Shown in pieces: positions 4,817 to 64,000 of a stretch of 64,000 nt of DNA. Within the stretch, counting starts at the first letter, position 1. Each line of letters begins with the position of its first letter. The stretch is from an uncultured Phycisphaeraceae bacterium (GTDB lineage: Bacteria; Planctomycetota; Phycisphaerae; Phycisphaerales; UBA1924): positions 1-64,000 of the forward strand of contig CAYMNQ010000003.1 in the NCBI GenBank assembly GCA_964391865.1. Direction: 5' to 3'. Both the position numbers and the translations under genes were made by a program. The notes below the pieces were generated by a model. It worked only from the letters and a program-made list of their open reading frames with translations. It made no database searches and was not told the DNA's origin.

Positions 4817-5722
4817 TCAGAACGAGAAGACCACGCTCGCGGTGATGCGCTGGCTGAAGAGGTCGTCGTCGTTGTCGGTGATGGGGATTTCCCACGCGAA
4901 GCGCAGGCCGAGGTTCTCGATGGGGCGGATTTCGAAGCCCGCGCCGAAGCTGACCACCGGGTCGTCTTCGCCCTTGCCGAAGTTGCCGACATCGAGGCCA
5001 TGGAAGGGGAGCGGCGAGGTGCCGGCGTTGATGACGTGGTAGCCGTTGAACTCGACGACGGGGCTGAACCAGTCGCACACGCCGTAGTCGGCGTGGACGT
5101 GCCAGGAGAGTCGGTCGGAGTTGCCGAGCGGGTCTTCATCTCCCGCGGCGAGGAAGACGTTCAGCGTGGCGCCGAGGTGGAGGGCGTCGAAGCCCTTGTT
5201 GATCGAGCCCCAGAAACGGACTTCGGCGTCGTTTTGCAGGACATCGTCGTCGCCCCAGGGGAACTGGAAGCCGGCGCCGAGGGCGGCGTGGAACTGGTTC
5301 TTGTAGTCCTGAAGGAATGACCACTTGAGGCCGGCGGCGACGTCGTTCGCGCCGTCGTCGTTGACGAGGGGGGTATCGAACTGCGCGAAGCCGTCCTTGT
5401 ACGCGACGAGCTGAACGCTGGGTGTGAGCGCGAGGCGGATCTGAAGGGCTTCAACGAAGGCGTGCCCGCCGCCGATGAGGCTCTCGCCCGGGAATTGGTG
5501 ATAGAGGAACCACGCGCGGATGTCGCTGGTGACGAAGGAATCTTCGTGGAAGTAGGGGGAGGTGATGGGGTGCACGAAGCGCTGCGTGATGGAGAGGTCG
5601 GCGGCTTCGGCGATGGAGTCGCCGAAGAGGACGAACTTGGCGGCCTGGGCGTGGGCGCTGTTCGTCAGCGCGATCGCGGCGGCGAGCCCGGCGGCGGCGG
5701 TGAGGAGACGGGTCTTCTTCAT
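4817..5722 (-). CDS. outer-membrane beta-barrel protein (MetA-pathway/phenol-degradation-type transporter-like)
   Basis: Signal peptide MKKTRLLTAAAGLAAAIALTNSAHA. Alternating amphipathic beta-strand composition; C-terminal ...VVFSF ends in Phe, as OMPs typically do. Start taken at the internal Met (ATG 5722) preceding the signal peptide. Confidence 0.55.
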   Translation of the reverse strand: MKKTRLLTAAAGLAAAIALTNSAHAQAAKFVLFGDSIAEAADLSITQRFVHPITSPYFHEDSFVTSDIRAWFLYHQFPGESLIGGGHAFVEALQIRLALTPSVQLVAYKDGFAQFDTPLVNDDGANDVAAGLKWSFLQDYKNQFHAALGAGFQFPWGDDDVLQNDAEVRFWGSINKGFDALHLGATLNVFLAAGDEDPLGNSDRLSWHVHADYGVCDWFSPVVEFNGYHVINAGTSPLPFHGLDVGNFGKGEDDPVVSFGAGFEIRPIENLGLRFAWEIPITDNDDDLFSQRITASVVFSF

Positions 5723-5849
5723 GGTCGAGCCCTTTCGAGAGAGTGAATTGGTCGCCGGCGGGCATCGCCCGCGCGGCGGCTGGGATTTCCGCCCCGGTCT
5801 CAATCCCCGCAGCGACGCGGGAGGAAGAGCGGCACCACCAGCCGGAGAA

Positions 5850-5925
5850 TCGGATATTCAGACTAAGAGATACACAAATACCAATATGACGTCAACTGGG
5901 ACACTCTCAAAGTCGGGAGGGGGTG
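5850..5925. promoter_or_regulatory. AT-rich leader with TGACGTCA palindrome upstream of the protease gene
   Basis: ggatattcagactaagagatacacaaataccaatatgacgtcaactggg is locally AT-rich in a ~70% GC genome and contains the perfect 8-bp palindrome TGACGTCA. It lies in the 388-bp divergent intergenic region 5723..6110. Confidence 0.2.
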
Positions 5926-6110
5926 GTGGTCCGTGTTCCTGGAGGGGAAAAAACGTGGAAAAGGTCCAGAAACCAGCCGCTCCGGGGGCCGGATTGGGGT
6001 ACGTTTCCTGTACGGCGTGGGCGTCTGCGACCGCCCCGTCGTGCCGTGTGTCCGGCTCTGGTGATGTCGCGTGTGATGTGCTGAGCGGAGCTCGCGCGAA
6101 AGGAGCCGAG

Positions 6111-8519
6111 ATGCTGTCCATTCGTGGTGTTCGTGGTGCTGTTGGCGCGGCGATGGTGGTGGCGGTGGTGCTGGCTTCGGGAACGGCGGCGGCGATCGCG
6201 GGGGAGCGCGGCGGGCTGAGCGAGTTGAGCGCGATGGTTGAGGCGCGGGCCGGGGGCGGGTTTGTGGTCCGCGCGGGCGGGATGGCGGTCGTGCGCGAGG
6301 GAGCGCGGTTCGCCCCCGAGGCGGTGCGGGCGATCGGGTTCGCGTCGGGTGCGCGGGTGGTGACGTGGAGCGAGGGGGGCGAGGCGTGGTACGCGATCGG
6401 GGCGGATGGGGCGCTCCCGAAGACGGTGGCGCGGGCGGATTTCGGGATCAAGCTGGCGAGCGGGGCGTTCGAGCCGATGGCGGTTGGGGCGCGGGCGGAG
6501 CCGGGGGCGCATCTGCGCGCGGCGGATGATTCGGAGTTGCTGATCGTTCAGTTCGTCACTCCCGCGTTGGCGGAGTACCGGGCGGCGATGGAAGAAGCCG
6601 GTGCGAAGGTTCGCTACTACCTGCCCGAGCAAGCGCAGTTGGTGACGATGGACGCGGCGGCGCGGGCGCGGGTCGAGGCGCTGCCGTTCGTGCGCTGGGT
6701 CGGCGCGTACCACCCGTCGGACAAGCTCGAGCAACCGCTGCGCGAGGCGCTGGGCGCGGATGCTTCGTCGTTGGCGGAGCGGCAGCGGTACAGCATCCAG
6801 GTGGCGGAGCGCGGGCCTGGGATGAAGGGCGAGTTGGCGGACACGATTCTCGCGCTCGGCGGGGAAGTCAGCGCGATCTCGCCGCATAGTTTCATTCTGG
6901 AAGCGACGCTCTCGCCCGGGCAGTTGCTGCGGGTGGCGGCGATGGATGAAGCGGTGGCGATCGACCGCGTGCTGCCGGCGGTTGAGTACATGGACAACGT
7001 GCGGAACGTGGGCGGCGGGAACTATGTTGAGACCGTCGCGGGGTTCAGGGGCGAGGGCGTGCGCGCCGAGGTGATGGACGGCGGCATCTTGACGACGCAC
7101 CAGGATTTCCAGGCGCGCCCGGTGATTCTGCACGGGGCGACGGCGGGGAGCGCGAGCCACGGGACGGCGACGTACGGGATCGTGTTCGGCACGGGCACGG
7201 CGAACCCGGCGGGGCGCGGGATGCTGCCGATGGCGCAGGGGATCTTCGCCGACTACGGGTCGTACGGCGGGGACCGGTACGCGCACAACGCGTCGCTGCT
7301 GCTCCCGCCGTATCAGGCGGTGTTCCAGAGCAACTCGTGGGGGTCGTGCTGCTTCTACAGCTACACGACCGCGGCAGCGGCGATGGACGACAACATCTTT
7401 GATAACCAGATCGTGCTCGTGCAGGCGCAGGCGAATCAGGGCTCGACGAGCAGCGACACGATCGCGTTCGCGAAGAACATTGTTTCGGTGGGCGGCATCC
7501 GGCATCAGGGGACGGGGGTGCTGACGGATGACAATTGGACCAACGCGGGGAGCATCGGCCCCGCGCCGGACGGGCGCATCAAGCCCGATCTCGCGTTCTG
7601 GTACGACTCGATCTTCACGACGACGAGCAGCAGCCCGACGGCGTACACCAGCAGCTTCGGCGGGACGTCGGCGGCGACGCCCATGACCGCCGGGCACTTC
7701 GGGCTGATGTTCCAGATGTGGCACAACGGCATCTTCGGGAACACGGTTGATCCGATGGGGACGGTGTTCAGCAACCGCCCGCGCATCGCGACGAGCAAGG
7801 CGCTCATGATCAACACCGCGACTCCCTACCCGTTCGTCGGCGCGAGCGCGGACCTGACGCGCACGCACCAGGGCTGGGGCCGCGCGGATGTGAAGCGTTT
7901 GTACGACCTGCGCGAGCGGATGTTCATTGTGGATGAGTCCCGCGTGCTGGCGCCGTTTGAAACAGCGACGTACATGCTGGAAGTGCCGACGGGCGCCGCC
8001 GAGCTGCGCGCCACGCTGGTGTGGACCGACCCGGCGGGCGTCGCGAGTTCGAGCGTCCACCGCGTGAACAACCTTGACCTGAAGGTGACCGCGCCCAACG
8101 GCACGACGTTCTACTGGGGCAACAACGGGCTGCGTGACGGGAACGTTTCGACGTCGGGCGGCGTGGCGAACACGCTGGACACGGTCGAGAACGTGTGGGT
8201 CAGCGCGCCGGCGCCAGGGATGTGGACCGTCGCGGTGACGGCGGCGCTGGTGAATCAGGACGGGCGCGTGGAGACACCGGAGCTGGATGTTGATTTCGGT
8301 TTGGTGGTCAGCGGCGTGCTGCCGCCCGTGAAGACCCCGGCGTGCCCGGGCGATGCGGACGGCGACGGCGCGGTCGGGCTGGCTGATGTGGCGCTGATCG
8401 TGCAGAACTGGGAGACCATCGGGCTGCCCGGCACGCTGGGCGATCTTGATAACGATGGCGCGCGCGGGCTCGCGGATATCGCGATCGTGATCAACAACTG
8501 GGAAGCGGTGTGCCGCTGA
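6111..8519 (+). CDS. subtilisin-like serine peptidase (S8) with C-terminal dockerin-type module
   Basis: Signal peptide MLSIRGVRGAVGAAMVVAVVLASGTAAA. S8 catalytic motifs: Asp in VMDGGI, His in SHGTATYG, Ser in GGTSAATPM. C-term CPGDADGDGAVGLADVALIVQNWE...GDLDNDGARGLADIAIVINNWEAVCR is two Ca-binding dockerin-like repeats flanked by Cys. AAAGGAG lies 6 nt upstream of ATG 6111. Track ORF 5562.. extends into the divergent gene and is not used. Confidence 0.8.
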   Translation: MLSIRGVRGAVGAAMVVAVVLASGTAAAIAGERGGLSELSAMVEARAGGGFVVRAGGMAVVREGARFAPEAVRAIGFASGARVVTWSEGGEAWYAIGADGALPKTVARADFGIKLASGAFEPMAVGARAEPGAHLRAADDSELLIVQFVTPALAEYRAAMEEAGAKVRYYLPEQAQLVTMDAAARARVEALPFVRWVGAYHPSDKLEQPLREALGADASSLAERQRYSIQVAERGPGMKGELADTILALGGEVSAISPHSFILEATLSPGQLLRVAAMDEAVAIDRVLPAVEYMDNVRNVGGGNYVETVAGFRGEGVRAEVMDGGILTTHQDFQARPVILHGATAGSASHGTATYGIVFGTGTANPAGRGMLPMAQGIFADYGSYGGDRYAHNASLLLPPYQAVFQSNSWGSCCFYSYTTAAAAMDDNIFDNQIVLVQAQANQGSTSSDTIAFAKNIVSVGGIRHQGTGVLTDDNWTNAGSIGPAPDGRIKPDLAFWYDSIFTTTSSSPTAYTSSFGGTSAATPMTAGHFGLMFQMWHNGIFGNTVDPMGTVFSNRPRIATSKALMINTATPYPFVGASADLTRTHQGWGRADVKRLYDLRERMFIVDESRVLAPFETATYMLEVPTGAAELRATLVWTDPAGVASSSVHRVNNLDLKVTAPNGTTFYWGNNGLRDGNVSTSGGVANTLDTVENVWVSAPAPGMWTVAVTAALVNQDGRVETPELDVDFGLVVSGVLPPVKTPACPGDADGDGAVGLADVALIVQNWETIGLPGTLGDLDNDGARGLADIAIVINNWEAVCR

Positions 8520-8727
8520 ATTCGTTCTCTCATCAGCTAAGCAGGGAGGACTTCGCACATCGGCTCGTCACCCGCGATGAGACGCGGCATGATTATTGTG
8601 AAGTTCACGTTGTATCAGCGTGATTTCCTTTGGTGTTGATTTGGGTGAATGGCAGACTGCCTACGGCTTGTTTGCCGCTGGTGTTTTGCGTTTCTGCATT
8701 TCATCTCATTCTCTGAAAGGCGATCTG

Positions 8728-11082
8728 ATGTTCCAATCACGCTGTATCGTCTGTGTGGGTGCGGTGCTGGCGTTGGCAGGTTCTTCGCACGCCCAGAGCA
8801 CCTTCGTCAACCGGCCCGGGTCGGCCGTGGGCACCGTGAATGCCTGGCTTCGAGCAGACATCTGGACGGTCGGCGGCGGCGGAATGCCGTCGGTTCCGAC
8901 CGCCGACAGTTTCACGAACCTGTTTGATCCCGGGCTGCAGTGGGAGCTGTATTTCGGGCGGGTGCTCGGGTTACCCGGCCCACCGACCGGATACCCCGCC
9001 GCGCATCCTTCGATCGGAGCCCTGATCGCGTCCAACATCAGTGTGAACTTGATCGGCCCCGATCAGACCGGCGGGACCGACGACGGGAGCCTCACGCTCA
9101 CGGGGATCGACGGCTCGTACATGCCTACGGTCCCGGATTTCTTCTCGACGGGGCTAACTACGAGCCTGCTGGTTAGCGACTTTACGACATTGTCGCAAGG
9201 CCCCAGTTGGCTGCGTTTGGCTTCACTGAAGACCGTGGCGAGCCAGCCGGTGTATGTGGTCGGTGGTTCGAGCACCTCGACGTTGATTGTCGAAGGCGCC
9301 ATCAGTGACGGCTCCGTGAACCTGCGCGCACCTCGGATCGAAATCGACGGCGCCTCGGCATCCATGGAGATCCGCGATTCGGCGAAGGTCAGCGCGGACA
9401 ACATCCAGGTCGGCGGGCTCAACTACATCACCGGAACCGTGGCCGGGACCCTGAAGGTCTTGAACGGTTCGGAGGTGGAAACCACGAGTGCGGACGGAGC
9501 CGCGGTCGGCGTGCGGGCGGCGACGACGACATTGGTGGCTCCGTTCGAAAGCCCGGATGCGGTGTCCACGTTCTTGCTCGATTCCGGAAGCACGCTGCGC
9601 ACCGCCCAGCTGTGGGCCTACGCCACGCGCGACGGTCTGCCGGTGGTTCCCCCGCCGTCTTACTCGAATCGTTCGCAGGCCATCCTGGATTTCCGCTCCG
9701 GCTCGGTCGAAGTGTTCGGGTACAACCGCGTGGTTTCGCTCCAGGCCGAGCGGAACGGGAACGCGAGACTGCTGCTTGGCTCGGCCGCCACGAGCGCGAC
9801 GCTCGACGCGGGCGGCATCGACGCCTCGGCTATCGATGGAAGCCAGGTCGGCGTGAGGGCGTTCGGCTCGACCCTCAACCTCGAAGGCACGATTGGCGGT
9901 GGGCAACTCGTTGGCAGTTTCATGCTCAGGTGCACGCTCGACAACGCCGCGAGCTTCGCGTCGTTCACGTTCAACAACAGCGACATGATCTCCTCCTACG
10001 GCGGCGTCTACCTCCGGGCCGATTCGCCGCCCTTTGAGCCGATCTCTCTTACAGTGTTGAACACCAGCGTCATCCGCGGGCGGAGCTTCACCGTCGGCGG
10101 TGGGCGCGTCATGATCCGGGACGACAGCGAAGTCAGCATGAACTTCCTCGGCGTGGGGATGATCCTCGCGCGGTCTCCCTTCGCGCAGCAGTTCGAGCTG
10201 TTCCCGGGCCAGCAGGGCTCCGTGATCCTGAAGGACAACAGCCGGCTGCTTCTGGTGCAGGATGTCGAGGGGGCGCCCGGGTTCTTCCACGGCACGACGC
10301 CGATCGTGACGCTCGGCGAGAACGCAAGGCTCGAGGTCGATTCGACCAGCGGCGTGAACATCGGCGGGAACGTGTTCGTTCCCATCGAGCCCGGCGCGAT
10401 CCAGATCTTCCCGCCCAGCTTCAGCGGGTACACGCCAGCGCTCTACGGCTCCGGCACGGTGGTCGGGACGGTGATCGGGCCAGCCCAAGAGCGCGGCGAG
10501 GCCGAGTCCGAGCGTGGCCCCGGGCCCGCGTCCAATGTCCGCGTCATCAATAACGGCGGGCTCATCGAACCTGGGGCGCCCGTGGGGACTCTCCGCATCG
10601 AGGGAGACCTCGTTCAGAACTCCGGCTCCATCGTCATCGAGATCGGCGGCACAGGGCGCGGGATGGAGCACGACCAGATCGCCGTCACCGGCGACATCTC
10701 TCTCTACGGCGGAAACATCGAACTCAGGCTCATGGAGGGCTTCACGCTGCCGTCTTCCTTCAGTTTGGAGATTTTCACCGGCTTCTCATCCTTCTTCATC
10801 GACCAGGACGCGGTGAGCTTGATTCCGCCCGCCGGGGTTGAGATCGAGAACTTCGACCCGCTAACCGGCATGATCACCATCACGCCGCCGCCCGGTTGCC
10901 CGGGCGATGTGAATGGTGACCTTTCGGTCGGGCTGGCGGATATCGCGGTGATGATTCAGCACTGGAGCAAGACCAAGCCGCCGGTCCCGCCGTTCATGGA
11001 CGGTGACCTTACGGGGGACGGGATGGTCACGATGGAGGACGTGGCGATCGTGATCATGAACTGGGCGGCGACTTGTCGGTAG
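8728..11082 (+). CDS. large secreted beta-helix/adhesin-like repeat protein with C-terminal dockerin-type module
   Basis: Signal peptide MFQSRCIVCVGAVLALAGSSHAQ. Gly/Thr/Ser-rich beta-strand repeats (e.g. GTLRIEGDLVQNSGSIVIEIGG) resemble autotransporter-associated beta-strand repeats. C-term CPGDVNGDLSVGLADIAVMIQHW...DGDLTGDGMVTMEDVAIVIMNWAATCR. GAAAGG RBS precedes ATG 8728. Confidence 0.7.
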   Translation: MFQSRCIVCVGAVLALAGSSHAQSTFVNRPGSAVGTVNAWLRADIWTVGGGGMPSVPTADSFTNLFDPGLQWELYFGRVLGLPGPPTGYPAAHPSIGALIASNISVNLIGPDQTGGTDDGSLTLTGIDGSYMPTVPDFFSTGLTTSLLVSDFTTLSQGPSWLRLASLKTVASQPVYVVGGSSTSTLIVEGAISDGSVNLRAPRIEIDGASASMEIRDSAKVSADNIQVGGLNYITGTVAGTLKVLNGSEVETTSADGAAVGVRAATTTLVAPFESPDAVSTFLLDSGSTLRTAQLWAYATRDGLPVVPPPSYSNRSQAILDFRSGSVEVFGYNRVVSLQAERNGNARLLLGSAATSATLDAGGIDASAIDGSQVGVRAFGSTLNLEGTIGGGQLVGSFMLRCTLDNAASFASFTFNNSDMISSYGGVYLRADSPPFEPISLTVLNTSVIRGRSFTVGGGRVMIRDDSEVSMNFLGVGMILARSPFAQQFELFPGQQGSVILKDNSRLLLVQDVEGAPGFFHGTTPIVTLGENARLEVDSTSGVNIGGNVFVPIEPGAIQIFPPSFSGYTPALYGSGTVVGTVIGPAQERGEAESERGPGPASNVRVINNGGLIEPGAPVGTLRIEGDLVQNSGSIVIEIGGTGRGMEHDQIAVTGDISLYGGNIELRLMEGFTLPSSFSLEIFTGFSSFFIDQDAVSLIPPAGVEIENFDPLTGMITITPPPGCPGDVNGDLSVGLADIAVMIQHWSKTKPPVPPFMDGDLTGDGMVTMEDVAIVIMNWAATCR

Positions 11083-11197: not shown

Positions 11198-11563
11198 GTG
11201 ATTGTGCTGGTGTTGTACGCCGTGCCGGTGTGGGCGCTGATCTACCTGCTGCGCCGGCGGGTGGTGGGGCTGGTTGTGTTGGGGGTGGCGACGGCGTTGG
11301 TGCCGCTGCTGATCCATGTGGAGTCGGCGGCGATCGGGCCCTGGGCGGGGATGCTGCGGATCATCGGGGCGTCGTACGCGGGGCTGATCGCGGTCGTGGG
11401 TGTGCTGCTGTGGTTGCAGCGCCGTGCGGCGCGGGGTCACGAGTGCCGGCACTGTTTGTACGACCTGACGGGGAATGTCACGGGCGTGTGCCCGGAGTGC
11501 GGGCACGTGACGCCTGATGTGACGGCGGGGGAGGTGCGCCGGGCGAAGAAGGGGAAGGCGTAA
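11198..11563 (+). CDS. small membrane protein with C-terminal zinc ribbon (short member of the C-x2-C...CPECG family)
   Basis: Two TM helices then RRAARGHECRHCLYDLTGNVTGVCPECGHV. This matches the tail motif of the three larger paralogs (48806..49525, 49527..50219, 58172..58936). GTG start; GGAG upstream. Confidence 0.5.
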   Translation: MIVLVLYAVPVWALIYLLRRRVVGLVVLGVATALVPLLIHVESAAIGPWAGMLRIIGASYAGLIAVVGVLLWLQRRAARGHECRHCLYDLTGNVTGVCPECGHVTPDVTAGEVRRAKKGKA

Positions 11564-32366: not shown

Positions 32367-33482
32367 TCACTCAGACGCCGGGGCGCCGCCGCACGCTTCG
32401 CCCCAGCGCGCAATCACCTCGGCGATGTCCCCGAGCCCCACGTCACCGGAAGTGTCCAGATCCTCAGCGGTCGATGCGGGAGGAGACGCCAGCCCCCAGT
32501 TCACGATCAAACGGGCCAAGTCGCTCAGCCCCGCCGAGCCGTCGCCGTCGACATCGCCCTCGCACCCCGGACCCGGCAGCACCTTTCGCGAGAAGAAGTT
32601 CCAGATGACTTCGCTCGCCGAGAAATCGCGCGAGGTGAGACCGATGGCGGACTCCGGCAGATACTGTAAGCCGCCGGGCCAGGTGTGCCCGCCGTTCACG
32701 ACCACGATCCGGGCGAGTTCGAATCCTTGCGTGGACGCCGTGTAAGATTCGCGGAACGAGCTCGTGCCGTCCGCTTGCGGGTTGGCGAGCGGGGCGCTGC
32801 TGGGTGGGCCGTTCCCGTTCACGGCTTGCCAGTAGGTCATCGCCTCCAGCGAGCTGCTGCTCGGCTCGCCAGTCCCGGGGAAGACGCCGCCCTCGAACGC
32901 GATCAGGGGGTCCGCCGTCCCGACGATCTGCAGCACGTGAACCGGCCCGTCGGGCGTTGCCTGCTCGATGAACGCCCGCGCGAGATTGTGCGCGACCGGG
33001 GCGATGGCGGTGACTCGGTCGCGCAGCTCCGCGCCCAGAACGAACGAGAACCCCGCTCCGTTCGAGAGCCCGGTGGCGTAGACGCGCCGCGGATCGACGC
33101 CGAACTCGTGGGTCAGTCGGTCGATCGTCGCGCGCACATACGCGAGATCGTTCTCAGGGCTGCCGGTCGAGGCGCGGTAGTCGCCCCAGACGCCGTCGCC
33201 GGCGTCGAGATACGCCACCGCGAACCCGCGCGCGTCGGCCGTGGCGTTGAGCCCGGTAAGCGCGCGGAAGGATTCGGCATTGCCCGTCCCGCCGTGGAAT
33301 CCAAGAATCACGGGGCGCGGCAGAGGCCCGCCGCTCGCCGGGAGGTGCAGCAGCGCCCGGCGCATGGACCCATCGGGCATCGCGATTTGGAGTTCCTGGT
33401 CCGCTCGACCGCCGCGGCTCAGTACCAGGAAGATCGCCGCGCACATGGCACCCAGGCTGGACTGACTCCGGCGCTCTCGCAT
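32367..33482 (-). CDS. PHB-depolymerase/LpqC-family esterase with C-terminal dockerin-type module
   Basis: Signal peptide; alpha/beta-hydrolase nucleophile elbow GLSNGAG. C-term CEGDVDGDGSAGLSDLARLIVNWG...DLDTSGDVGLGDIAEVIARWGEAC. Confidence 0.7.
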   Translation of the reverse strand: MRERRSQSSLGAMCAAIFLVLSRGGRADQELQIAMPDGSMRRALLHLPASGGPLPRPVILGFHGGTGNAESFRALTGLNATADARGFAVAYLDAGDGVWGDYRASTGSPENDLAYVRATIDRLTHEFGVDPRRVYATGLSNGAGFSFVLGAELRDRVTAIAPVAHNLARAFIEQATPDGPVHVLQIVGTADPLIAFEGGVFPGTGEPSSSSLEAMTYWQAVNGNGPPSSAPLANPQADGTSSFRESYTASTQGFELARIVVVNGGHTWPGGLQYLPESAIGLTSRDFSASEVIWNFFSRKVLPGPGCEGDVDGDGSAGLSDLARLIVNWGLASPPASTAEDLDTSGDVGLGDIAEVIARWGEACGGAPASE

Positions 33483-33882: not shown

Positions 33883-35238
33883 TCACGCCCGCACGATGTT
33901 CGATCCGGGGACCGCGCGCATCGCGTTCCGCGTGTCGACCACCAACCTCGCATGCGCCGCGATCATCGCCCAGTCGTACGCCGAGTGGTGCGTCGAGATC
34001 ACCGCCGCGTCGTAGCCGCGCAGCATCTCGGGCGAGAGCGGCACGCTGTCCATCTTCAAGTCATGCCGGCGCATGCGGTGCGTCCGCGGCACGTGCGGGT
34101 CGTTGTAGTCCACCCGCGCGCCGAGCGCATCGAACTTCTCGATCAGTTCGAGGCTCGGGCTCTCGCGCACGTCATCGATATCCGGCTTGTACGCCAGCCC
34201 CAGGATCAGCACCCGCGCCCCGCTGATCGGCGTGCCGCGCTCGGCGAGCGCGCTCACGGTCCGCCCGACCACATAGTCCGGCATTGCATGATTGATTTCG
34301 CCCGCCAGCTCGATGAACCGCGTCGGCTGTCCGATCCGGCGCGCTTTCCACGACAGGTAGAACGGGTCGATCGGGATGCAGTGCCCGCCCAGCCCCGGGC
34401 CGGGGTCGAAGCGCTGGAAGCCGAAGGGCTTCGTGCTCGCGGCGGCGATCACCTCCCACACGTCGATCCCCATCGCGCCGAGGATCACCTTCATCTCATT
34501 GACGAGCGCGATGTTCACCGCGCGGTAGATGTTCTCCAGCAGCTTCGCCGCCTCCGCCACCTCCGCGCGCGAGCAGGGCACGATCGTCTCGAACGCCGCC
34601 GCGTACAGCGCGACCGCGGCCTGCCCGCTCGGCTCGTCCACGCCGCCGACGAGCTTGGGGATCTGGTAGGTCGAAAGGTCCTTGCGCCCGGGGTCCTCGC
34701 GCTCGGGCGAGAACGCGAGGAAGAAGTCGGTGCCGAGCGAGAGCGTGGCCCCTCTCCCCGGCCCTCTCCCCGAGGGAGAGGGTGACAGGAGCCGCGGCAA
34801 CACTTCATCGCGCGTCGTGCCGGGGTAGGTGGTTGATTCGAGCACGACGAGCTGCCCCGCGCGGAGCGTCGCGCCGACATCCTCCGCCGTGCGATGGACG
34901 TATGAAAGGTCCGGTTGCTGCGCCTGATCCAAGGGCGTGGGCACGCAGATCAGCACCGCGTCCGGCTCGCCGAGGCGGTGGAAATCGCACGTGGGCTCGA
35001 ATTCCCCGCCCGAGCCCAGCCGAGCAACGAACTCGTCGCCCAGATGCCGGATGTACGAGCGCCCGGCGCGGAGCATCTCGATCTTCGCCGGATCGACATC
35101 AAAGCCCAATACGCGGAACCCGGCGCGACGGAAGACCCCCGCCAAGGGGAGGCCGACATACCCGAGCCCGATCACGCCCACGACGGCGGAACGGTCGGCG
35201 ATCTTGCGGAGCAGACTGACAAGCGCGGCGGTGGACAT
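33883..35238 (-). CDS. UDP-N-acetyl-D-glucosamine/mannosamine 6-dehydrogenase (nucleotide-sugar dehydrogenase, WbpA/WecC-like)
   Basis: GLGYVGLP Rossmann start. Catalytic GGHCIP. UDPG/MGDP dehydrogenase three-domain layout. Contains a Pro/Gly-rich insert. Confidence 0.8.
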   Translation of the reverse strand: MSTAALVSLLRKIADRSAVVGVIGLGYVGLPLAGVFRRAGFRVLGFDVDPAKIEMLRAGRSYIRHLGDEFVARLGSGGEFEPTCDFHRLGEPDAVLICVPTPLDQAQQPDLSYVHRTAEDVGATLRAGQLVVLESTTYPGTTRDEVLPRLLSPSPSGRGPGRGATLSLGTDFFLAFSPEREDPGRKDLSTYQIPKLVGGVDEPSGQAAVALYAAAFETIVPCSRAEVAEAAKLLENIYRAVNIALVNEMKVILGAMGIDVWEVIAAASTKPFGFQRFDPGPGLGGHCIPIDPFYLSWKARRIGQPTRFIELAGEINHAMPDYVVGRTVSALAERGTPISGARVLILGLAYKPDIDDVRESPSLELIEKFDALGARVDYNDPHVPRTHRMRRHDLKMDSVPLSPEMLRGYDAAVISTHHSAYDWAMIAAHARLVVDTRNAMRAVPGSNIVRA

Positions 35239-35320
35239 GGCGCGAGCAAGGCTACCCGAGCGACATCGAACGAACGCGGCAAGCACCGATCGCGTACAAG
35301 TGTGCTGGCGCTTTGGGCCG

Positions 35321-36988
35321 ATGATGTTCGGCACGAGGACGGCCCGCCGCGGCAACGACTCCGCATCCCGCATGAGCGAAGACCCCCAACACACCCCGCC
35401 CGCCACAGCACCCGTTCTCGCCGAGCCGGTCGTGCCGGCACCGGGCGGCGATGGGCTCGCGAAGCGCGTCGGGCATTCGATGGTCTGGCAAGCGCTGAAC
35501 ACCGGGCTGGGCAAGGTGCTGAGCTTCCTGGCGCAGATCGCGCTCGGGTGGCTGCTGCTCGCCGAGGACTTCGGGGTATACGCGATCGCGGTGTCGGTCG
35601 TATCGTTTCTGGGCGTCTTTCGTTCCGGCGGCGCGCGCGACCTGATGATCCAAGGTGGCTCGAAGCGCTACGAGGAACTCGCGGGCCCGCTCTTCTGGAT
35701 GGCCATCACCGCGGATGTCGTGACCGCCGCGCTGCTCCTGGCCGCCGCGCCGATCGCCGCGTGGATCTACGGCGATCCGCAACTGATGTGGCTCATCGCG
35801 TTCAACGCCGTGTTGATCCCCTTCGGCACGCCGGGCGTGATGCTCTCGGCGAAGCTGGTGGCGGACCTGCGCTTCCGCGAATACTCGATCGTGCAACTCT
35901 GGGTCCAGATCTGCCGCTACGGATTGTCAGTGCTCTTCGCGTGGCTCGGCTTCGGCACGATGAGTTTCTTTCTGCCCCTGATCCCCATGATCATCGCGGA
36001 GTTCACGCTGGCCAGCCGCTACGTCGACGACCGACCCTGGGAGCGCCGAGCGGAACTGAACCGCTGGGGCGGGTTCCTGCGCCAGTCGCGCTGGATCATC
36101 TTCACGACATTCACCGGCGCGACTCTCACCAACGGCGAGAGCATGATGATCGGGGCTTTCGTCGCGCCCGACGTGCTGGGCGTCTTCTTTTTCGCCCGCC
36201 AGATCGTCGTCCAGACCGGCGCGATGCTCGCGTGGAACTTGCACCAGGTGCTCTTCCCCGCGCTCAGCCGAATGGACGGCGAGTGGGAGCGCCAGCGCCG
36301 AGCGATGCTCCGCGCGCTCTCCACGCTCAGCCTCGCGTCGGCTCTTTTCATGGGGGTCCAGGCGGTGACGTTCGCGCCCCTCGAGCGCCTGCTCTGGCAA
36401 GGCAAATGGAACGCGGCGGTGCTGCCCACCATCGTGTGCGCTATTCTCTACCCGATGCGCATGATGCTGTCGGTCGCCGAAGCGACCTGCTACGCGCGCA
36501 TGCGATTCCGCATGCTCGGCGCGGTGCACGTCACGCTGGCGATCGCGCTGATCGGTTCGGCGGCGACCGCCGCGAAAGTGTGGGGCGACCCGCTGAGCCT
36601 CTCCATCGTCAGCGGCGTGGTCACCGCCGCCGCGTGTCTCGCGATCAACGTCGTCGTGCTCAAGGTCTTCGAGATCCCCCGCCGCGCGACGATCGCCGCC
36701 ACCGTGCCCGCCTGGCTCGTCACCGGCGTGATATGCGTCCTCATCGTCCTTGCCGACCGGCGAATGGCGGCGATTCTCGAACCGCTCATCGCGCCCGATG
36801 GTCAGCGGTGGCGCATCGTGATTCTCGACCTGCTGCGCTGCGCCTACACCGGCGCGATGTTCTCCGCGGCGATGCTCCTCATCGCGCGGGTTCTCTTCCC
36901 GCGAGAACTCGGCGAGTTCCTCCGGGTGGTGCCGCGAGGATGGGGCGCGCGGGTTGCCCGGTGGCTGCGCGTGGAGCAGGCGGCGTAG
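35321..36988 (+). CDS. wzx: Wzx-like oligosaccharide flippase (polysaccharide biosynthesis protein family)
   Basis: 12-14 TM helices; family-like N-terminus (KRVGHSMVWQALNTGLGKVLSFLAQIALGWLL). Start is ATG 35321 or ATG 35372; divergent from the dehydrogenase gene. Confidence 0.7.
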   Translation: MMFGTRTARRGNDSASRMSEDPQHTPPATAPVLAEPVVPAPGGDGLAKRVGHSMVWQALNTGLGKVLSFLAQIALGWLLLAEDFGVYAIAVSVVSFLGVFRSGGARDLMIQGGSKRYEELAGPLFWMAITADVVTAALLLAAAPIAAWIYGDPQLMWLIAFNAVLIPFGTPGVMLSAKLVADLRFREYSIVQLWVQICRYGLSVLFAWLGFGTMSFFLPLIPMIIAEFTLASRYVDDRPWERRAELNRWGGFLRQSRWIIFTTFTGATLTNGESMMIGAFVAPDVLGVFFFARQIVVQTGAMLAWNLHQVLFPALSRMDGEWERQRRAMLRALSTLSLASALFMGVQAVTFAPLERLLWQGKWNAAVLPTIVCAILYPMRMMLSVAEATCYARMRFRMLGAVHVTLAIALIGSAATAAKVWGDPLSLSIVSGVVTAAACLAINVVVLKVFEIPRRATIAATVPAWLVTGVICVLIVLADRRMAAILEPLIAPDGQRWRIVILDLLRCAYTGAMFSAAMLLIARVLFPRELGEFLRVVPRGWGARVARWLRVEQAA

Positions 36989-36994
36989 CGCGGC

Positions 36995-37939: not shown

Positions 37940-37984
37940 ACATCCTCCACGCCGTTTCTGGCTTTGCGCCCATCGGCCCGCGCG

Positions 37985-38941: not shown

Positions 38942-38955
38942 TCAGCGCCCCCGAT

Positions 38956-39795: not shown

Positions 39796-39941
39796 GCGGT
39801 CGCGGTTCGGGTCGGAGTTCCTCGGCTCATTGATCGTGCAGCTACGGCGGATTGTGTCACAGTTCGGGCGTTTATGCGGCCGATGGAGTGTTGATACTAC
39901 ACTCCGCCCGTCTCGCCTCTTTTCGCTTCAAGACTCCCCGC

Positions 39942-40646: not shown

Positions 40647-40658
40647 ACCCGAGCCGCC

Positions 40659-41363: not shown

Positions 41364-41604
41364 ACTCGACGGTTTTCACGCCGCACAAACATAACCTGAA
41401 CCGGACGATAACACGCTCCCGCGCCGTCCCCAAGTCGCAGTCGCCCGCTGATCCGGCCGATGGACCATCCGCCGCCGCGTGCGTCGGGCGGGTCCGCTAT
41501 CCTTGACGCCCCTCTTCGCCGGCGCGGTGGGCGCTCGACGACAGTTCCCCTGCGGGGCCGGGGCCGTGCCGCGTTCCTTGTCTTCCTTTTCGAGGAATCC
41601 CCTC

Positions 41605-42582
<978 letters not shown>

Positions 42583-42585
42583 GAA

Positions 42586-42619
42586 TTCACCACAGAGGAC
42601 ACAGAGAGCACAGAGGTGG
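42586..42619. repeat. inverted copy of a ~30-bp repeat (GTGCTCTCTGTGTYCTCTGTGGTGAA family)
   Basis: ttcaccacagaggacacagagagcacagaggtgg. Its reverse complement matches 43155..43188 at about 30/33 positions. Includes a GAATTC site. Confidence 0.5.
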
Positions 42620-42646
42620 TTCAGAGTTGGGAATGGGTTCAGACCG

Positions 42647-43188: not shown

Positions 43189-43197
43189 GGTTTGAAG

Positions 43198-44541: not shown

Positions 44542-44586
44542 TCGCGTCACGCGATTCGACCGATGCCTCGGCGAAGCGCGCCCGCG

Positions 44587-46897: not shown

Positions 46898-47557
46898 TCA
46901 CCGACAATTCGGGCATGGGCACTCGAACCCCCACGCATTGATCACCACCGCCAGATCGCCCAGCCCCACCTGACCATCGCCATCCAAATCCTGCAGCGCC
47001 CGCGGCGAGTCGTCCCCCCACGCGCCGATGATCGACGCGATATCGCCCAGCCCCACGAACCCGTCGCCGTCGAGGTCCGCCGGGCAGTCAGGGATGTACT
47101 CGACATCGAACGATGAATCGGTGAAGCGCCCGATCACCGCCAGGCCGCCGGGCAGCCCGCTCTCCCGCACCATGATCCACGTCGCGAACGGGTTGCCGAA
47201 GAAATCGATCTCGCCGTTCAGATCCGCGGTCTCGAACTCGGCGCTGAACGTGCCCTGCCCGTTCCATCCCAGCGATGAACCGATCACCGCCGTGCCGCGC
47301 GTCGCGTGGATCAGGAACACCCTCACATCCGCGGCGTCATACCCGCCGACCGTCTCAAACGTCGCCCGCACGCGCGTGTTCACCACCCGCCCCTGCGCCG
47401 TGCTGACGATCAGCGACTCCTTCGCCGGCAGCGCGGTCATCTCCTCCGGGATCGCAAAGCTCATCACCCGCGTGTACACCGGGCCCGCCGCCGCCGCCGC
47501 GCCGAGCGATGCGAACACCGCCAGCGCCGCCGCCTTCACCATTCGATGATCTCGCAT
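46898..47557 (-). CDS. small secreted protein with C-terminal dockerin-type module
   Basis: Signal peptide MMRDHRMVKAAALAVFASLGAAAAAG. GGAGGTGG RBS. C-term CPADLDGDGFVGLGDIASIIGAWG...DLDGDGQVGLGDLAVVINAWGFECPCPNCR. Confidence 0.6.
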   Translation of the reverse strand: MRDHRMVKAAALAVFASLGAAAAAGPVYTRVMSFAIPEEMTALPAKESLIVSTAQGRVVNTRVRATFETVGGYDAADVRVFLIHATRGTAVIGSSLGWNGQGTFSAEFETADLNGEIDFFGNPFATWIMVRESGLPGGLAVIGRFTDSSFDVEYIPDCPADLDGDGFVGLGDIASIIGAWGDDSPRALQDLDGDGQVGLGDLAVVINAWGFECPCPNCR

Positions 47558-47612
47558 CATCCACCTCCAGCCCACGCCGATTCAATCGAGCATCTCTCCC
47601 TATGCCGCTAAA

Positions 47613-60564: not shown

Positions 60565-62385
60565 TCAATTGCAGCTCGAACCCCAGTGCTGGATGACGCG
60601 AGCGATATCGCCAAGGCCGATCACGCCCGAGTGGTCGAGGTCGATCCGTGCGCAGATGATTTCGTCGGTGCTGTTCCAGGTTTGGATGATCGCGGCGATA
60701 TCGGGGAGGCCGACCATCAGGTCGGTGCTGGCGTCGCCCGGGCAGGGGAAGAGGAACTCGTGCGCGCCGGCGTCGACGATGAGGGCGCCGATCGGCGCTC
60801 CGGTGTCGGGGGTCGAGGGATCGTCGGCGAAGCGCGGGCAGTTGGTGAAGTCGAGCGCGATTCCGGCGGGGAGGAACGAGTTGTCGCCGCGGTCGATGGC
60901 GGGGGAGTTGGGGGAGAGTCGGAGGTCATCGTCGATGCTGCCGGGGATGTTGTCGGGGCCGTCGGCGTCGACGAACTGAGGGTTGGCGTTGGAGTTGCCG
61001 ATGCCGGGGAACTGAGAGGCCCACCCTTCGATCAGGCAGCGGCTGGCGGTGATTGTGCCGGCGAAGAACGTGGTGCCGAACGCGTCGATTGGCTCCAGCG
61101 TGCTCTGGATGTCCCAGACGATCGAGTTGCTGATGTGAACCGGGCCGATGGTGCCGAGGAACGAGAACACTTGTGAAGGATTTCCATCATTCCATGCGGT
61201 GCAGTTGATGATTTGCGCTGGTGCCTGCGTAATAAGGGTCGCCCCGCCGCCGGTGCGACCGTTGCCGGTGAAGAGGCTGTTGGTGATGCGGAGGCCGGGG
61301 CAGAGGCTTTCGACGACGATGGCCGCCCCGCCGTCGGCCGTGCCCTCGTTGCCGACGAAGAGGCAGCGGTCGATGGTGACTGCAGCGGCGGTGGCGCGGA
61401 GCGCGCCGGCGTTCCCGCCGCTGGTGTTGCGGATGAAGCGTGATCGGCGGATGTCGGCAGTTCCGCCGCCGATGCGGATGCCCACGCCGTTGGTGGCGAT
61501 CTGGCACTGCATGGAGAAGAGACAGTCCTCGACGGTGAGGTGGCTGGTGAAATCCAGATCGCCGATGTAGTTGATGCCGGAGGCGATGCCCATGCCGTTG
61601 ATCCCGCCGGTTTGGATGTCGGCTTCGACAAAGGTGCATCGGCGGACGGTGGTGTTCGACCCGGCGCGGGAGCTGATGTTTGCCCCGGTGCCGGCGCGGT
61701 TGCCGACGAAGGAGCAGTCCTCGATGAGGGGCGCGGCGTTGAGGGCTGAGATGCCCGCGCCCTCGAGCATTTTGAACTGTCCGTTGTCGCGGAAGTGACA
61801 GGCTCGGATGGTCGGCGCGCCGGCGAGAATGAGCACGCCGCCGCCGGTGCCGCTGCCGGGGTTGTCGAAAGAGAATTCGCCGCCCGTGCCGCGCTCGATG
61901 GTGAAGCCGTCGAGGAGGGTGGTTGTGCCGGCGTTGTTGAAGCGGACGACGTGGTCGCTGTTGTCGTCCAGTGTCGCGAAGACGTGCGATAGATCGTCGC
62001 TGTTCAGGTCGGCGGTGAGGATGGTGGGATGAGCCGCGGGATTGCGATGGTCCGCGCTGGTTTCCGTGCCGACGAACCCGCCGAGGAGCGCGACGCCGCT
62101 GGGGATGACGAGGGAGATGGTGGTCGGGCCGTTGGGTGGCGCGGGGGCGTAGGTGCCCTGCGCGACCCAGAGTTCATCGCCCGGTTGCGCGAGGACGAGG
62201 GCGCTCTGGACGGCGAGGCGGCCCTGGAAGGCGTTGGGCCAGGAGGTGCCGTCGTTCGCGCCCGTGGTGAGTTCGGCGTTGACGAAGATGACGGCCGCAT
62301 CGGCGGGCGGCGTCAGCGCTGCGATCGCGCCGACGAATGCGACGGAGCCAAAGAGCATGCGAGCGTTTCGATTGAAGTGCTTCAT
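60565..62385 (-). CDS. right-handed parallel beta-helix repeat protein (pectate-lyase-fold, secreted) with C-terminal dockerin-type module
   Basis: Signal peptide MKHFNRNARMLFGSVAFVGAIAALTPPADA. Repeated NxxGxxxGG/beta-helix rungs (IRIGGGTADIRRSRFIRNTS...). C-term CPGDASTDLMVGLPDIAAIIQTWN...IDLDHSGVIGLGDIARVIQHWGSSCN. The ATG overlaps the upstream paralog's stop within TCATGA. Confidence 0.7.
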   Translation of the reverse strand: MKHFNRNARMLFGSVAFVGAIAALTPPADAAVIFVNAELTTGANDGTSWPNAFQGRLAVQSALVLAQPGDELWVAQGTYAPAPPNGPTTISLVIPSGVALLGGFVGTETSADHRNPAAHPTILTADLNSDDLSHVFATLDDNSDHVVRFNNAGTTTLLDGFTIERGTGGEFSFDNPGSGTGGGVLILAGAPTIRACHFRDNGQFKMLEGAGISALNAAPLIEDCSFVGNRAGTGANISSRAGSNTTVRRCTFVEADIQTGGINGMGIASGINYIGDLDFTSHLTVEDCLFSMQCQIATNGVGIRIGGGTADIRRSRFIRNTSGGNAGALRATAAAVTIDRCLFVGNEGTADGGAAIVVESLCPGLRITNSLFTGNGRTGGGATLITQAPAQIINCTAWNDGNPSQVFSFLGTIGPVHISNSIVWDIQSTLEPIDAFGTTFFAGTITASRCLIEGWASQFPGIGNSNANPQFVDADGPDNIPGSIDDDLRLSPNSPAIDRGDNSFLPAGIALDFTNCPRFADDPSTPDTGAPIGALIVDAGAHEFLFPCPGDASTDLMVGLPDIAAIIQTWNSTDEIICARIDLDHSGVIGLGDIARVIQHWGSSCN

Positions 62386-64000
62386 GAGCAGCTTTCTCCC
62401 CAGTGCTGGATGACGAGGGCGATATCGCCGAGGCCGATGACGCCCGAGTGATCGAGGTCGATGCGCGTGCAGATGGTTTCGTCGGTGCTGTTCCAGGTTT
62501 GGATGATCGCGGCGATATCGGGGAGGCCGACCATCAGGTCGGTGCTGGCGTCGCCCGGGCAGGGGAAGAGGAACTCGTGCGCGCCGGCGTCGACGATGAG
62601 GGCGCCGATCGGCGCTCCGGTGTCGGGGGTCGAGGGATCGTCGGCGAAGCGCGGGCAGTTGGCGAAGTCGAGCGCGATGCCGGCGGGGAGGAACGAGTTG
62701 TCGCCGCGGTCGATGGCGGGAGAACCAGCGGAGAGTCGGAGGTCATCGTCGATGGTGCCGGGGATGTTGTCGGGGCCGTCGGCGTCGGCGAAGAGGGGGT
62801 TCGCGTTGATGGTGCCGTTGCCGGGGAATTGGCCGGTCCAGGTTTGGATGAGCGAACGGTTGACGGTGAAAGCGGCCGAGCCGAGTCGGAGCAGGTCGGC
62901 GAACTGTGGTGTGTTGCCGAGATTGCCGCGGAAGATGCAGTTGTGGATGTTCGCGGTGGTGTTGTTGCCGCTAGCGATGAGCGCGGCGTGGAACATGTTG
63001 GCTCCGCCGTTGTTGGCGATGGTGCAGTTGGTCATGGTGAACGAAGCGCCTTGCGAGAAGATGGTGGAGAATCCCAGACGGTCATTGCCGGAGAAGACGG
63101 AGTTGGTGATGGTGATGGCCGAGGCACCGAGGGTGTAGATGGCGGCACCGCCGTCGCCGGCGCCTTCGCATCCGACGAAGAGGCAGTGGTCGACGGTGGT
63201 GACGGAGAGCGATCCCGGCGTGTCGAAGGAACCGGCGCTGATCCCGCCGCCGCTGCCGGCGTGAGTGCAGTTGATGAATCGGCATCGGCGGATGGTCGCT
63301 TCGCCGCTCTCGACTTTGATGCCGAGGCCGTCGCCGGCGATGAAGAAGGTGGACGGGAAGGAGAAGTCGCAGTCCTCGATGAGGATGGTGGAGGGCGGGC
63401 TGATGAAACTGCCGATCCCGACGCCGGAGGCGATGCCGAGCCCGGCGCCGAAGTTCGTTTCAAGAGTGGCATCGGTGAAAGAGCAGCCGCGGACGACGGA
63501 GTTCGAGCCGTGGTTGTTGAGATTCGCGCCGACGGCGGCGCGGTTGCGTGTGAAGTGGCAGTGTTCGACGGTGGTGTTGCCGGCGGCGATGTGGAGCCCG
63601 CCGCCGAAACTCTCGGCGGAGTTTTCGCGGATGAGGCAGTTGCGGATGGTGGGCGCGCCAGCAAGGACGATGATCCCGCCGCCGGCACCGATGTCGGGTT
63701 TGACGGCGGGCAGGGCGCGGGAGAGTGCGAAGCCGCGCTCGATGGTGAAGCCGTCGATGACGGTGCCCGCCCCGCCGATGGTGGTGACGATGTGGAAGAC
63801 GTTGTCATTCATGGGCGGGTCGATGGGGGTGTCGTCGTTGTTGAGGTCGCCGGTGAGGATGGTGGGGTTGGCGCTGTGGTTGCGTTGATCGGCGGCGGTC
63901 TCGATGCCGAGAAACCCGCCGAGGAGCGCGACGCCGTTGGGGACGTTGAAGGTGCTGAGCGGCGGAGCGCCGGGCGCTCCGGGGGCGTAGGTGCCTTGAG
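62382..64000 (-). CDS. paralogous beta-helix dockerin protein, 5'-truncated by the window edge
   Basis: C-terminal 200 aa nearly identical to 60565..62385 (..CPGDASTDLMVGLPDIAAIIQTWNSTDETICTRIDLDHSGVIGLGDIALVIQHWGESCS). Homology to the paralog continues upstream of the track's first Met (63812) to position 64000. Confidence 0.7.
   Translation of the reverse strand, partial: QGTYAPGAPGAPPLSTFNVPNGVALLGGFLGIETAADQRNHSANPTILTGDLNNDDTPIDPPMNDNVFHIVTTIGGAGTVIDGFTIERGFALSRALPAVKPDIGAGGGIIVLAGAPTIRNCLIRENSAESFGGGLHIAAGNTTVEHCHFTRNRAAVGANLNNHGSNSVVRGCSFTDATLETNFGAGLGIASGVGIGSFISPPSTILIEDCDFSFPSTFFIAGDGLGIKVESGEATIRRCRFINCTHAGSGGGISAGSFDTPGSLSVTTVDHCLFVGCEGAGDGGAAIYTLGASAITITNSVFSGNDRLGFSTIFSQGASFTMTNCTIANNGGANMFHAALIASGNNTTANIHNCIFRGNLGNTPQFADLLRLGSAAFTVNRSLIQTWTGQFPGNGTINANPLFADADGPDNIPGTIDDDLRLSAGSPAIDRGDNSFLPAGIALDFANCPRFADDPSTPDTGAPIGALIVDAGAHEFLFPCPGDASTDLMVGLPDIAAIIQTWNSTDETICTRIDLDHSGVIGLGDIALVIQHWGESCS

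Follow-up and report, generated by a model that had tools for sequence, protein, structure and literature searches.

Cysteine-bracketed dockerin-like modules end six secreted proteins at one Phycisphaeraceae locus and belong to a Phycisphaerae-wide C-terminal tag

Introduction

Phycisphaerae degrade polymers and are abundant in water, soil and sediment, and how they keep their exoenzymes at the cell surface is the question raised by the locus described here. The locus is the stretch formed by the first 64,000 nucleotides of contig CAYMNQ010000003.1 from an uncultured Phycisphaeraceae bacterium (GCA_964391865.1), hereafter the window, with a G+C content of about 66%. Within it, six secreted proteins end in the same type of module, a pair of calcium-binding repeats flanked by cysteines and 58-65 amino acids (aa) long. 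What is this module, how widely is it used, and what might it do for the proteins that carry it? We find that it is almost certainly a dockerin-fold domain, as judged from profile comparisons and a structure model, that it is a C-terminal tag found across the Phycisphaerae, and that docking to the cell envelope is its probable role.

Results

A profile hidden Markov model (HMM) of the six modules was run over all stop-to-stop pieces in the six reading frames of the window. Six copies were detected with E-values of 3e-33 to 2e-27, and nothing else among these pieces scored better than E ~1. Given this gap, the window contains exactly six copies, far beyond chance, and no seventh. The original prediction had listed six secreted proteins that end in cysteine-flanked tandem calcium-binding repeats, and translation and the HMM bear this out for all six open reading frames (ORFs) that it named. 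Each copy is the extreme C-terminus of a different signal-peptide protein, and the tagged genes, which are six of roughly 46 in the window, all carry modules of one flavour. As placed by HMM and alignment, Module 1, the copy that was later modelled with AlphaFold, lies at positions 8343-8516 on the forward (+) strand at the end of an S8 serine peptidase (CPGDADGDGAVGLADVALIVQNWETIGLPGTLGDLDNDGARGLADIAIVINNWEAVCR). Module 2, at 10897-11079 (+), ends a 785-aa secreted protein (bh; CPGDVNGDLSVGLADIAVMIQHWSKTKPPVPPFMDGDLTGDGMVTMEDVAIVIMNWAATCR), and Module 3, at 32370-32564 on the reverse (-) strand, ends an esterase of the polyhydroxybutyrate (PHB) depolymerase type (phb; CEGDVDGDGSAGLSDLARLIVNWGLASPPASTAEDLDTSGDVGLGDIAEVIARWGEACGGAPASE). 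Also on the reverse strand are Module 4 of a small secreted protein (sm; 46901-47086; CPADLDGDGFVGLGDIASIIGAWGDDSPRALQDLDGDGQVGLGDLAVVINAWGFECPCPNCR) and Modules 5 and 6 of two beta-helix proteins, pl1 (60568-60744; CPGDASTDLMVGLPDIAAIIQTWNSTDEIICARIDLDHSGVIGLGDIARVIQHWGSSCN) and pl2 (62385-62561; CPGDASTDLMVGLPDIAAIIQTWNSTDETICTRIDLDHSGVIGLGDIALVIQHWGESCS).

The module is composed of two F-hand calcium-binding repeats (DxDxDGxVGLxDIAxxIxxW) placed between a cysteine at position -2 and a cysteine near the stop codon. The first half has the consensus C-P-G-D-x-D-G-D-x-x-V-G-L-x-D-I-A-x-x-I-x-x-W and is followed by a linker of 8-13 residues, after which the second half reads D-L-D-x-D/S-G-x-V-G-L-x-D-I-A-x-V-I-x-x-W-x-x-x-C. 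Columns C1, D4, D8, G12, L13, D15, A17, W23, D34, L35, G39, D45, A47, V49, I50, W53 and C57 are invariant in the alignment of the six modules. In all 12 repeats, loop positions 1, 3, 5 and 12, which hold the calcium ligands, are occupied by D, D/N/S/T, D/S and D, respectively. Positions 9, 10, 14, 17 and 20 (G, L, A, I and W) are nearly invariant across the same repeats, and identity between repeats amounts to 8-16 of 21 residues. The N-terminal cysteine is module position 1, which is -2 relative to the conserved glycine G0 ahead of the first calcium loop, and the second bracket cysteine is found 4-5 residues past the last helix and 1-8 residues from the stop. The tails read AVCR, ATCR, EACGGAPASE, CPCPNCR, SSCN and ESCS; the phb module has 8 residues beyond its last cysteine, the sm protein ends in CPCPNCR, and the pl1 and pl2 modules have a third cysteine in the linker.

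Sequence families assign the module to the dockerins unevenly. With Pfam Dockerin_1 (PF00404; gathering score 22.9 bits), the bh module scores 30.0 bits and the S8 and sm modules 20.8 bits each, and the phb, pl1 and pl2 modules give no match at E < 0.1. The Dockerin_1 search proposed in the original prediction therefore confirms one module of six outright, places two just under the threshold and misses three. A profile of all six modules compared with the Protein Data Bank (PDB) retrieved the type II dockerins 4wi0_B and 2b59_B, as well as 2y3n_B, at E-values of 6e-5 to 9e-5, with EF-hand proteins ranking below the dockerins. The S8 module was then modelled with AlphaFold2 from a 21-sequence alignment, giving a mean per-residue confidence (pLDDT) of 91 and two helices, at residues 18-26 and 48-56. 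The best 17 Foldseek matches of this model in the PDB are all dockerins that were solved in complex with cohesins, headed by 2y3n_B with probability 1.00, template modelling (TM) scores of 0.71/0.75, a root-mean-square deviation (rmsd) of 1.6 A and 30% identity. TM scores to dockerins are 0.54-0.71, compared with ~0.23 for EF-hands of the calmodulin type. The dockerin-type label given to the repeats originally thus agrees with the bh score, with PDB profile matches at E ~1e-4 and with the Foldseek ranking, and the module is almost certainly a genuine dockerin-fold domain with two tandem F-hand calcium-binding loop-helix repeats. It is nearest to the type II / B. cellulosolvens group, with its hydrophobic position 10 and, after each helix, an aromatic residue plus glycine.

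In dockerins, residues -1 to -3 together with residues of the C-terminal tail make up an "intramolecular clasp" that matters for calcium-induced folding, thermal stability and cohesin binding (Slutzki et al., PMC3821032). The kinds of clasp given in that paper are aromatic, hydrophobic and electrostatic, and disulfides or cysteine are not mentioned. When the profile is aligned with the CipA type II dockerin, the N-terminal cysteine of the module takes the place of that protein's clasp residue, W(-2). Among 104 modules from related loci (described below), 94 have both bracket cysteines, 4 have neither and only 6 have a single one (Fisher p = 2e-4, in a test that ignores relatedness), a co-occurrence that lends indirect support to a putative disulfide clasp. 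By analogy, the bracket pair probably forms a disulfide, as a covalent version of the intramolecular clasp, and such a bond would be fitting in a protein that resides in the periplasm or outside the cell of a diderm bacterium.

In order to follow the module beyond the window, one genome per GTDB species was scanned with the six modules and closer relatives as the query. This returned 68 confirmed loci, nearly all from metagenome-assembled genomes (MAGs) of Phycisphaerae/Phycisphaerales; the labels of a few read Isosphaeraceae or Planctomycetota, and that of one reads Limnohabitans. These loci contain 104 near-full-length modules as detected by HMM. The module ends no more than 4 residues from the stop codon in 95 of the 104, and of these terminal modules 84 have their last cysteine 0-2 residues from the end. 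In 24 of the 68 loci between two and five tagged genes lie within 8 kb. An exhaustive HMMER search of 1.84 billion cluster representatives gave 10,708 proteins at E <= 1e-3, 293 of them at E <= 1e-10, and in 70 of the best 150 representatives a Cys-bracketed module stops no more than 4 residues short of the C-terminus. A profile search of a 5.8-billion protein set gave 15 short matches only, its E-values being harsh for a 58-aa query. In 58 family representatives the passengers are very diverse, with Beta_helix, Ig, FG-GAP, PKD, Laminin_G_3, PD40, CBM96, RCC1, CHRD and reprolysin domains among them, and Dockerin_1 is detected in 24 of these 58 at E <= 1e-3 (best E 1.7e-12). The module is a Phycisphaerae-wide C-terminal tag.

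Two groups of database proteins use similar repeats in another way. The distant relatives P0016, P0019-P0021, P0023, P0040, P0053 and P0054 have internal tandem dockerin-like repeats (GDGFVGIDDLNxVLxNWN) followed by a PEP-CTERM-type tail (VPEP, a hydrophobic helix and RRR), and here the repeats belong to the anchored protein itself and are not a terminal tag. P0017, P0031, P0035, P0045, P0062, P0066, P0078 and P0102, of 900-2,770 aa, contain 3-16 internal dockerin-like repeats. Most of them share the C-terminal motif ...TPWSLR...LGLWE(D/E)..., with P0017 and P0031 lacking it, and they form a separate multi-dockerin family.

NCBIfam already has a profile for a related class of domain, NF041540, "GC-type dockerin domain-anchored protein". 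This profile aligns end to end (profile positions 1-67) with the bh and sm modules at 14.5-16.7 bits, below its curated cutoff of 29 bits, and it matches neither the other four window modules nor any of ten closely related window-type sequences. On sister variants from the related loci it scores 20-34 bits. Two homologs of the pl1 passenger, P0176 (41% identity) and P0249 (31%), bear the family name at NCBI, and their tails read C-A-A-D-V-N-S-D-G-F-V-N-G-D-D-Y-D-A-F...E-A-G-C-stop; they have the same cysteine bracket and duplicated F-hand as the window modules, with different helices. The sub-cutoff alignment and the shared bracket indicate that the window modules are a divergent branch of a catalogued superfamily, in which the GC-type dockerin is a sister branch. 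In a literature search the phrase "GC-type dockerin" occurred in no paper, and PMC6461901 was the only one to deal with these modules in Planctomycetota.

Homologous passengers do not keep the same ending. In the Phycisphaerae, homologs of the pl1 passenger end in dockerins of the window type, the FG..C type or the GC type; homologs other than these have a type IX secretion system (T9SS) sorting domain (PF18962) or a hydrophobic-basic tail instead. The four closest S8 orthologs (71-100% identical) bear the window flavour, and those at 46-58% identity have at least five dockerin flavours, or none. The flavours seen on orthologous passengers include the VGL..W, FG..C, GC, WGPC and NCDG types. 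Passenger domains of the "choice-of-anchor" kind, a term whose meaning is set out in bioRxiv 10.1101/2023.03.06.531300, are present in the tagged family, and pl1 and pl2 themselves have a sub-threshold match to "choice-of-anchor Q". Because tails are exchanged on both pl1 and S8 homologs, the module occupies the anchor slot of surface proteins, and the "choice-of-anchor" domains of NCBI follow this same logic. Flavour changes between lineages, whereas all six copies in the window share one flavour and one conserved helix face.

Nine of the S8 orthologs deserve separate mention. P0291-P0298 and P0300 bear another flavour, with a cysteine inside the first calcium loop (GDMNCDG) and a second in the linker (P-x-C), which would imply a different disulfide pattern on the same peptidase scaffold. 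P0297 is from a cultured organism, Phycisphaerae bacterium RAS1, and this orthologous S8 peptidase ends in a dockerin-like tail.

N-termini resembling signal peptides are found on all six tagged proteins, by direct reading and, for pl2, from a database copy. By domain searches the passengers are unrelated in function, pl1 and pl2 being paralogs of each other. Exact copies of window proteins occur on a 511,094-bp NCBI contig, which contains P0025, P0029 and P0287, and on Logan metagenome contigs, where phb is among them; the names that homologs bear assign the window to the Phycisphaerales. The S8 serine peptidase gene (6111..8519, +) encodes 802 aa with signal peptide MLSIRGVRGAVGAAMVVAVVLASGTAAAIA, a Peptidase_S8 domain (E 1.1e-13), a weak P-domain and the C-terminal module. 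Its database copy P0287 is also 802 aa long and 100% identical, which confirms the start at 6111. The frame is open for 183 codons 5' of this start (5562-6110, +), where it overlaps a divergent outer membrane protein (OMP)-like gene, and the high G+C content gives rise to many long spurious or antisense ORFs in the window, such as 5907-8558 (-; 883 aa) and 51153-55205 (-; 1350 aa). The bh protein (8725..11082, +; database copy P0029) has signal peptide MFQSRCIVCVGAVLALAGSSHAQS and the C-terminal module, and its passenger, the fold of which is unassigned, weakly resembles the autotransporter passenger EprS.

The remaining four carriers are encoded on the reverse strand. The PHB-depolymerase-type esterase (32367..33482, -; 371 aa) has a signal peptide, an Esterase_PHB match (E 1e-6), a match to NF050058 at 117 bits (cutoff 150) and the C-terminal module. 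The small secreted protein (46898..47575, -), of ~215-225 aa depending on a start at 47557 or 47575, has no domain recognisable by family searches ahead of its C-terminal module, which scores 16.7 bits with NF041540; P0056 is a homolog. The right-handed beta-helix protein pl1 (60565..62385, -; 606 aa; 100% identical to its database copy P0025) has a signal peptide, a Beta_helix match (E 6.7e-13), a weak choice_anch_Q match (19.2 bits) and the C-terminal module. Its paralog pl2 (62382..64000, -; Beta_helix E 2.7e-18; C-terminal module) is cut at its N-terminus by the window end, its ORF being open to position 63998. The full-length protein is P0167, of 614 aa, residues 77-614 of which are identical to the window ORF, and its N-terminus, MPTITRPHHPRFARAILALAAALGTSAPSPAE, is signal-peptide-like. 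The pl1 and pl2 genes are 93% identical over their last 420 nt (60565-60985 and 62382-62802, -), including 120 consecutive identical bases, whereas identity over the beta-helix is only ~40-50%, and this difference suggests recent gene conversion of the C-terminal region together with the dockerin module.

Elsewhere, the window encodes housekeeping enzymes and a cluster for polysaccharide biosynthesis. The cluster, at ~34900-44550, includes a Wzx-type flippase, two GT2 glycosyltransferases, an FkbM methyltransferase, two class I methyltransferases, an NAD-dependent epimerase/dehydratase and a UDP-glucose/GDP-mannose dehydrogenase, and is a possible source of surface glycan. Divergent from the S8/785-aa gene pair is a gene (4817-5803, -) for a secreted 328-aa protein that ends in ...VVFSF and weakly matches an OMP beta-barrel; it does not resemble a cohesin and was not seen to recur beside tagged genes in other loci. 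Four paralogous small proteins (11198-11563, +; 48806-49591, -; 49527-50219, -; 58172-59044, -) have two hydrophobic segments, one of them N-terminal, and at the C-terminus the zinc-ribbon-like motif CxxCGYDLxG...CPECG. Their matches to Pfam DZR/DUF7129 are weak, and they look like a lineage-specific expanded family.

Discussion

What, then, does the module do? We consider it fairly probable that it serves the calcium-dependent, non-covalent docking of exported proteins to one common receptor in the envelope. The module, attached at the very C-terminal end of functionally unrelated Sec-exported proteins, would fold after export in an oxidative and calcium-dependent manner, with its ends tied by the disulfide. 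Once folded, it would bind non-covalently to the common receptor, a cohesin or a functional equivalent encoded outside the window. Peptidases, esterases and beta-helix proteins would in this way be kept and displayed at the cell surface in a "planctosome"-like arrangement and would not diffuse away. A shared docking mechanism with a receptor encoded elsewhere had been put forward in the original prediction, and the sequences make it a reasonable proposal.

Several observations weigh against docking of this kind. Consistent with the earlier remark that no cohesin is visible, none of 46 window ORFs (the six tagged and 40 others) matches Cohesin (PF00963). A phmmer search of the six-frame window and the related loci with the second cohesin of C. 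thermocellum CipA, a query sequence that matches 1ohz_A/1anu_A at E 4e-90, reached a best E of 1.6, a single-sequence search of this type being insensitive. In an all-versus-all BLAST of 1,415 ORF pieces from the 68 loci and the window, no non-tagged gene family recurs beside the tagged genes; none of the non-tagged recurrent families occurs in more than 5 loci, and those few are arginine-rich antisense artefacts of tagged genes. By published counts (PMC6461901), dbCAN cohesins are lacking altogether from most of the Phycisphaerae MAGs that have dozens of dockerins, so that a classical cohesin partner is not assured. The cohesin-contact positions 10-11 of the module are G-L/x, as opposed to the S-T pair of type I dockerins, the number of cysteines in the pl1 and pl2 modules is odd, and half of the modules, as described above, escape Dockerin_1. 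Finally, a docking domain would not need to be C-terminal in nearly every case, as this module is, and such a placement would also fit a sorting signal.

A narrower form of the docking proposal can be offered only tentatively, and we are inclined to doubt it as it stands: that a Phycisphaerae-wide system for displaying exoproteins uses the Cys-clasped dockerins as its cargo tags, with a receptor other than a classical cohesin. The presence in genomes of dozens of tags alongside 0-1 detectable cohesins, together with the switches of flavour between lineages and the single flavour in the window, suggests a single co-evolving and as yet unrecognised receptor family per lineage.

One alternative does away with a dedicated protein receptor, so that the module would bind envelope or substrate polysaccharide in a calcium-dependent manner, or would merely stabilise exoproteins in calcium-rich water. 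The imbalance of 25-42 dockerins to 0-1 cohesins in the CAZy table for the more complete Nemodlikiaceae MAGs (PMC6461901) would be expected under this explanation, as would the lack of a cohesin match in the window or related loci, and the polysaccharide cluster in the window points to surface glycans being made. However, all structural neighbours of the module are cohesin-bound dockerins, and both helices keep a near-identical face (positions 9, 10, 13, 14, 17 and 20) in all six proteins, which is typical of one specific partner that they share. The switching of flavours between lineages on orthologous passengers likewise looks like co-evolution with a lineage-specific partner, and we regard a receptor-less module as unlikely.

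We also find it rather improbable that the module is a C-terminal secretion or sorting domain comparable to the T9SS C-terminal domain (CTD), which outer-membrane machinery for export or attachment would recognise in the periplasm and perhaps cleave or covalently process at the terminal cysteine. The terminal position (no more than 4 residues before the stop in 95 of 104 modules, with the last cysteine 0-2 residues from the end in 84 of 95), the replacement of T9SS sorting domains and hydrophobic-basic tails on homologous passengers, the occurrence on "choice-of-anchor" passengers, the NCBI name "domain-anchored protein" for the sister family, and the near absence of cohesins from Phycisphaerae MAGs with dozens of dockerins (PMC6461901) are all in keeping with such a domain. 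Against it, the module folds like a domain known for protein-protein docking, the tails as read lack a conserved cleavage motif as well as a transmembrane helix and a basic tail, none of the genes that recur beside tagged genes in the 68 loci is a candidate for such machinery, and a literature search gave no precedent for a dockerin as a secretion signal. The original prediction had itself named a lineage-wide C-terminal sorting tag with a sortase-like partner as the finding that would speak against docking; a lineage-wide C-terminal tag is indeed what we observe, but no sortase-like partner is known for it, and a signal made of a transmembrane helix and basic tail is missing. Sorting signals of the transmembrane type, such as PEP-CTERM or LPXTG, were rejected for the window proteins, the six tails having no hydrophobic stretch or basic cluster, and true PEP-CTERM tails were seen only in distant multi-repeat proteins such as P0016.

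That the repeats are ordinary EF-hand calcium sensors, or chance low-complexity Asp/Gly sequence in a GC-rich genome, is highly implausible: a weak EF-hand_1 Pfam match (E 0.049) in one protein only and calmodulin-type entries low down in the PDB profile list speak for it, but the six copies score ~1e-27 or better against ~1 for the next-best piece, calmodulin structures fit the model far worse than dockerins do, and the tagged proteins are exported, not cytoplasmic.

Docking to an envelope receptor thus being the reading that we prefer, its novelty should be kept in proportion. The domain class is already in NCBIfam (NF041540), and the excess of dockerins over cohesins in Phycisphaerae was published in 2019 (PMC6461901), and for these reasons the finding is incremental as a discovery. 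Mildly new relative to the sources consulted are the probable disulfide clasp, the strictness of the terminal position and the swapping of dockerin flavours on orthologous passengers. A tag that is lineage-wide, strictly terminal, probably disulfide-stapled and interchangeable with T9SS or transmembrane anchors on homologous passengers bears on how Phycisphaerae keep exoenzymes at the cell surface. The HMM of the tag and the cultured relative Phycisphaerae bacterium RAS1 offer a handle for a receptor hunt, and the module may be of use as a compact, oxidation-stabilised dockerin for protein-assembly engineering.

Comparison with known systems

The nearest catalogued relative is the GC-type dockerin. 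NF041540 and the window modules both have a cysteine 2-3 residues before the first calcium loop, two F-hand repeats and a cysteine at or next to the C-terminus; both sit at the extreme C-terminus of signal-peptide proteins, and they have lineage and passenger families in common. They differ in the helices, which read VGLxDIAxxIxxW-G/x-x-x-C in the window and VNGDDYDxFxxxFExGC in the GC type. They also differ at the end, where the last cysteine of the window modules is 1-8 residues from the stop and has no glycine before it, whereas the GC type ends in Gly-Cys (P0176, P0249). Gly-Cys at the very C-terminus is a criterion that we take from the family name and these two examples.

The sorting and anchoring signals known from other bacteria, namely the T9SS CTD (PF18962), PEP-CTERM and LPXTG, resemble the module in taking the same position on homologous passengers and in being lineage-wide with many copies per genome. 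Unlike them, the window module has neither a transmembrane helix with basic tail nor a beta-sandwich CTD; its fold is that of a dockerin, and no processing enzyme is known for it.

Similar to the dockerins of clostridia (PF00404), the module has a duplicated 22-residue F-hand, calcium ligands at positions 1, 3, 5 and 12 and two antiparallel helices, and its termini would be joined through the same clasp positions as theirs, namely -1 to -3 and the C-terminal tail (PMC3821032). The closest kinds by sequence or fold are the CipA XDoc (2b59/3kcp), A. cellulolyticus ScaA (4wi0) and B. cellulosolvens (2y3n), and with the type II dockerins the module shares the hydrophobic residue at position 10 and the aromatic residue plus glycine after each helix. 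Unlike clostridial type II dockerins, it has no X-module, and no cohesin or scaffoldin accompanies it in the window. Its clasp would be a disulfide, whereas clostridial clasps are stacking or salt-bridge contacts. Its passengers are peptidases, esterases and adhesin-like proteins where those of clostridia are cellulases, and its host, unlike clostridia, is a diderm planctomycete.

A close biological parallel comes from the same class. Andrei et al. (2019; PMC6461901) describe cohesin and dockerin modules in Nemodlikiaceae (Phycisphaerae CL500-3) that are not tied to cellulose degradation, and propose a "planctosome" that displays peptidases by means of a cohesin-bearing anchoring protein. In another member of the Phycisphaerae, Limihaloglobus, a scaffoldin with two cohesins has been reported (PMC11557425). 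The planctosome model rests on dbCAN and Pfam calls in freshwater MAGs and names an anchoring protein with cohesins, of a kind that is not visible in the window; the cysteine bracket and the strict C-terminal position are not mentioned in the passages of the paper that were retrieved. Like the source of the window, planctosome bacteria belong to the Phycisphaerae; they have peptidase carriers, rare or absent cohesins and P-domains (the window S8 peptidase has its weak P-domain match), and their genomes contain dozens of dockerins on non-cellulolytic enzymes.

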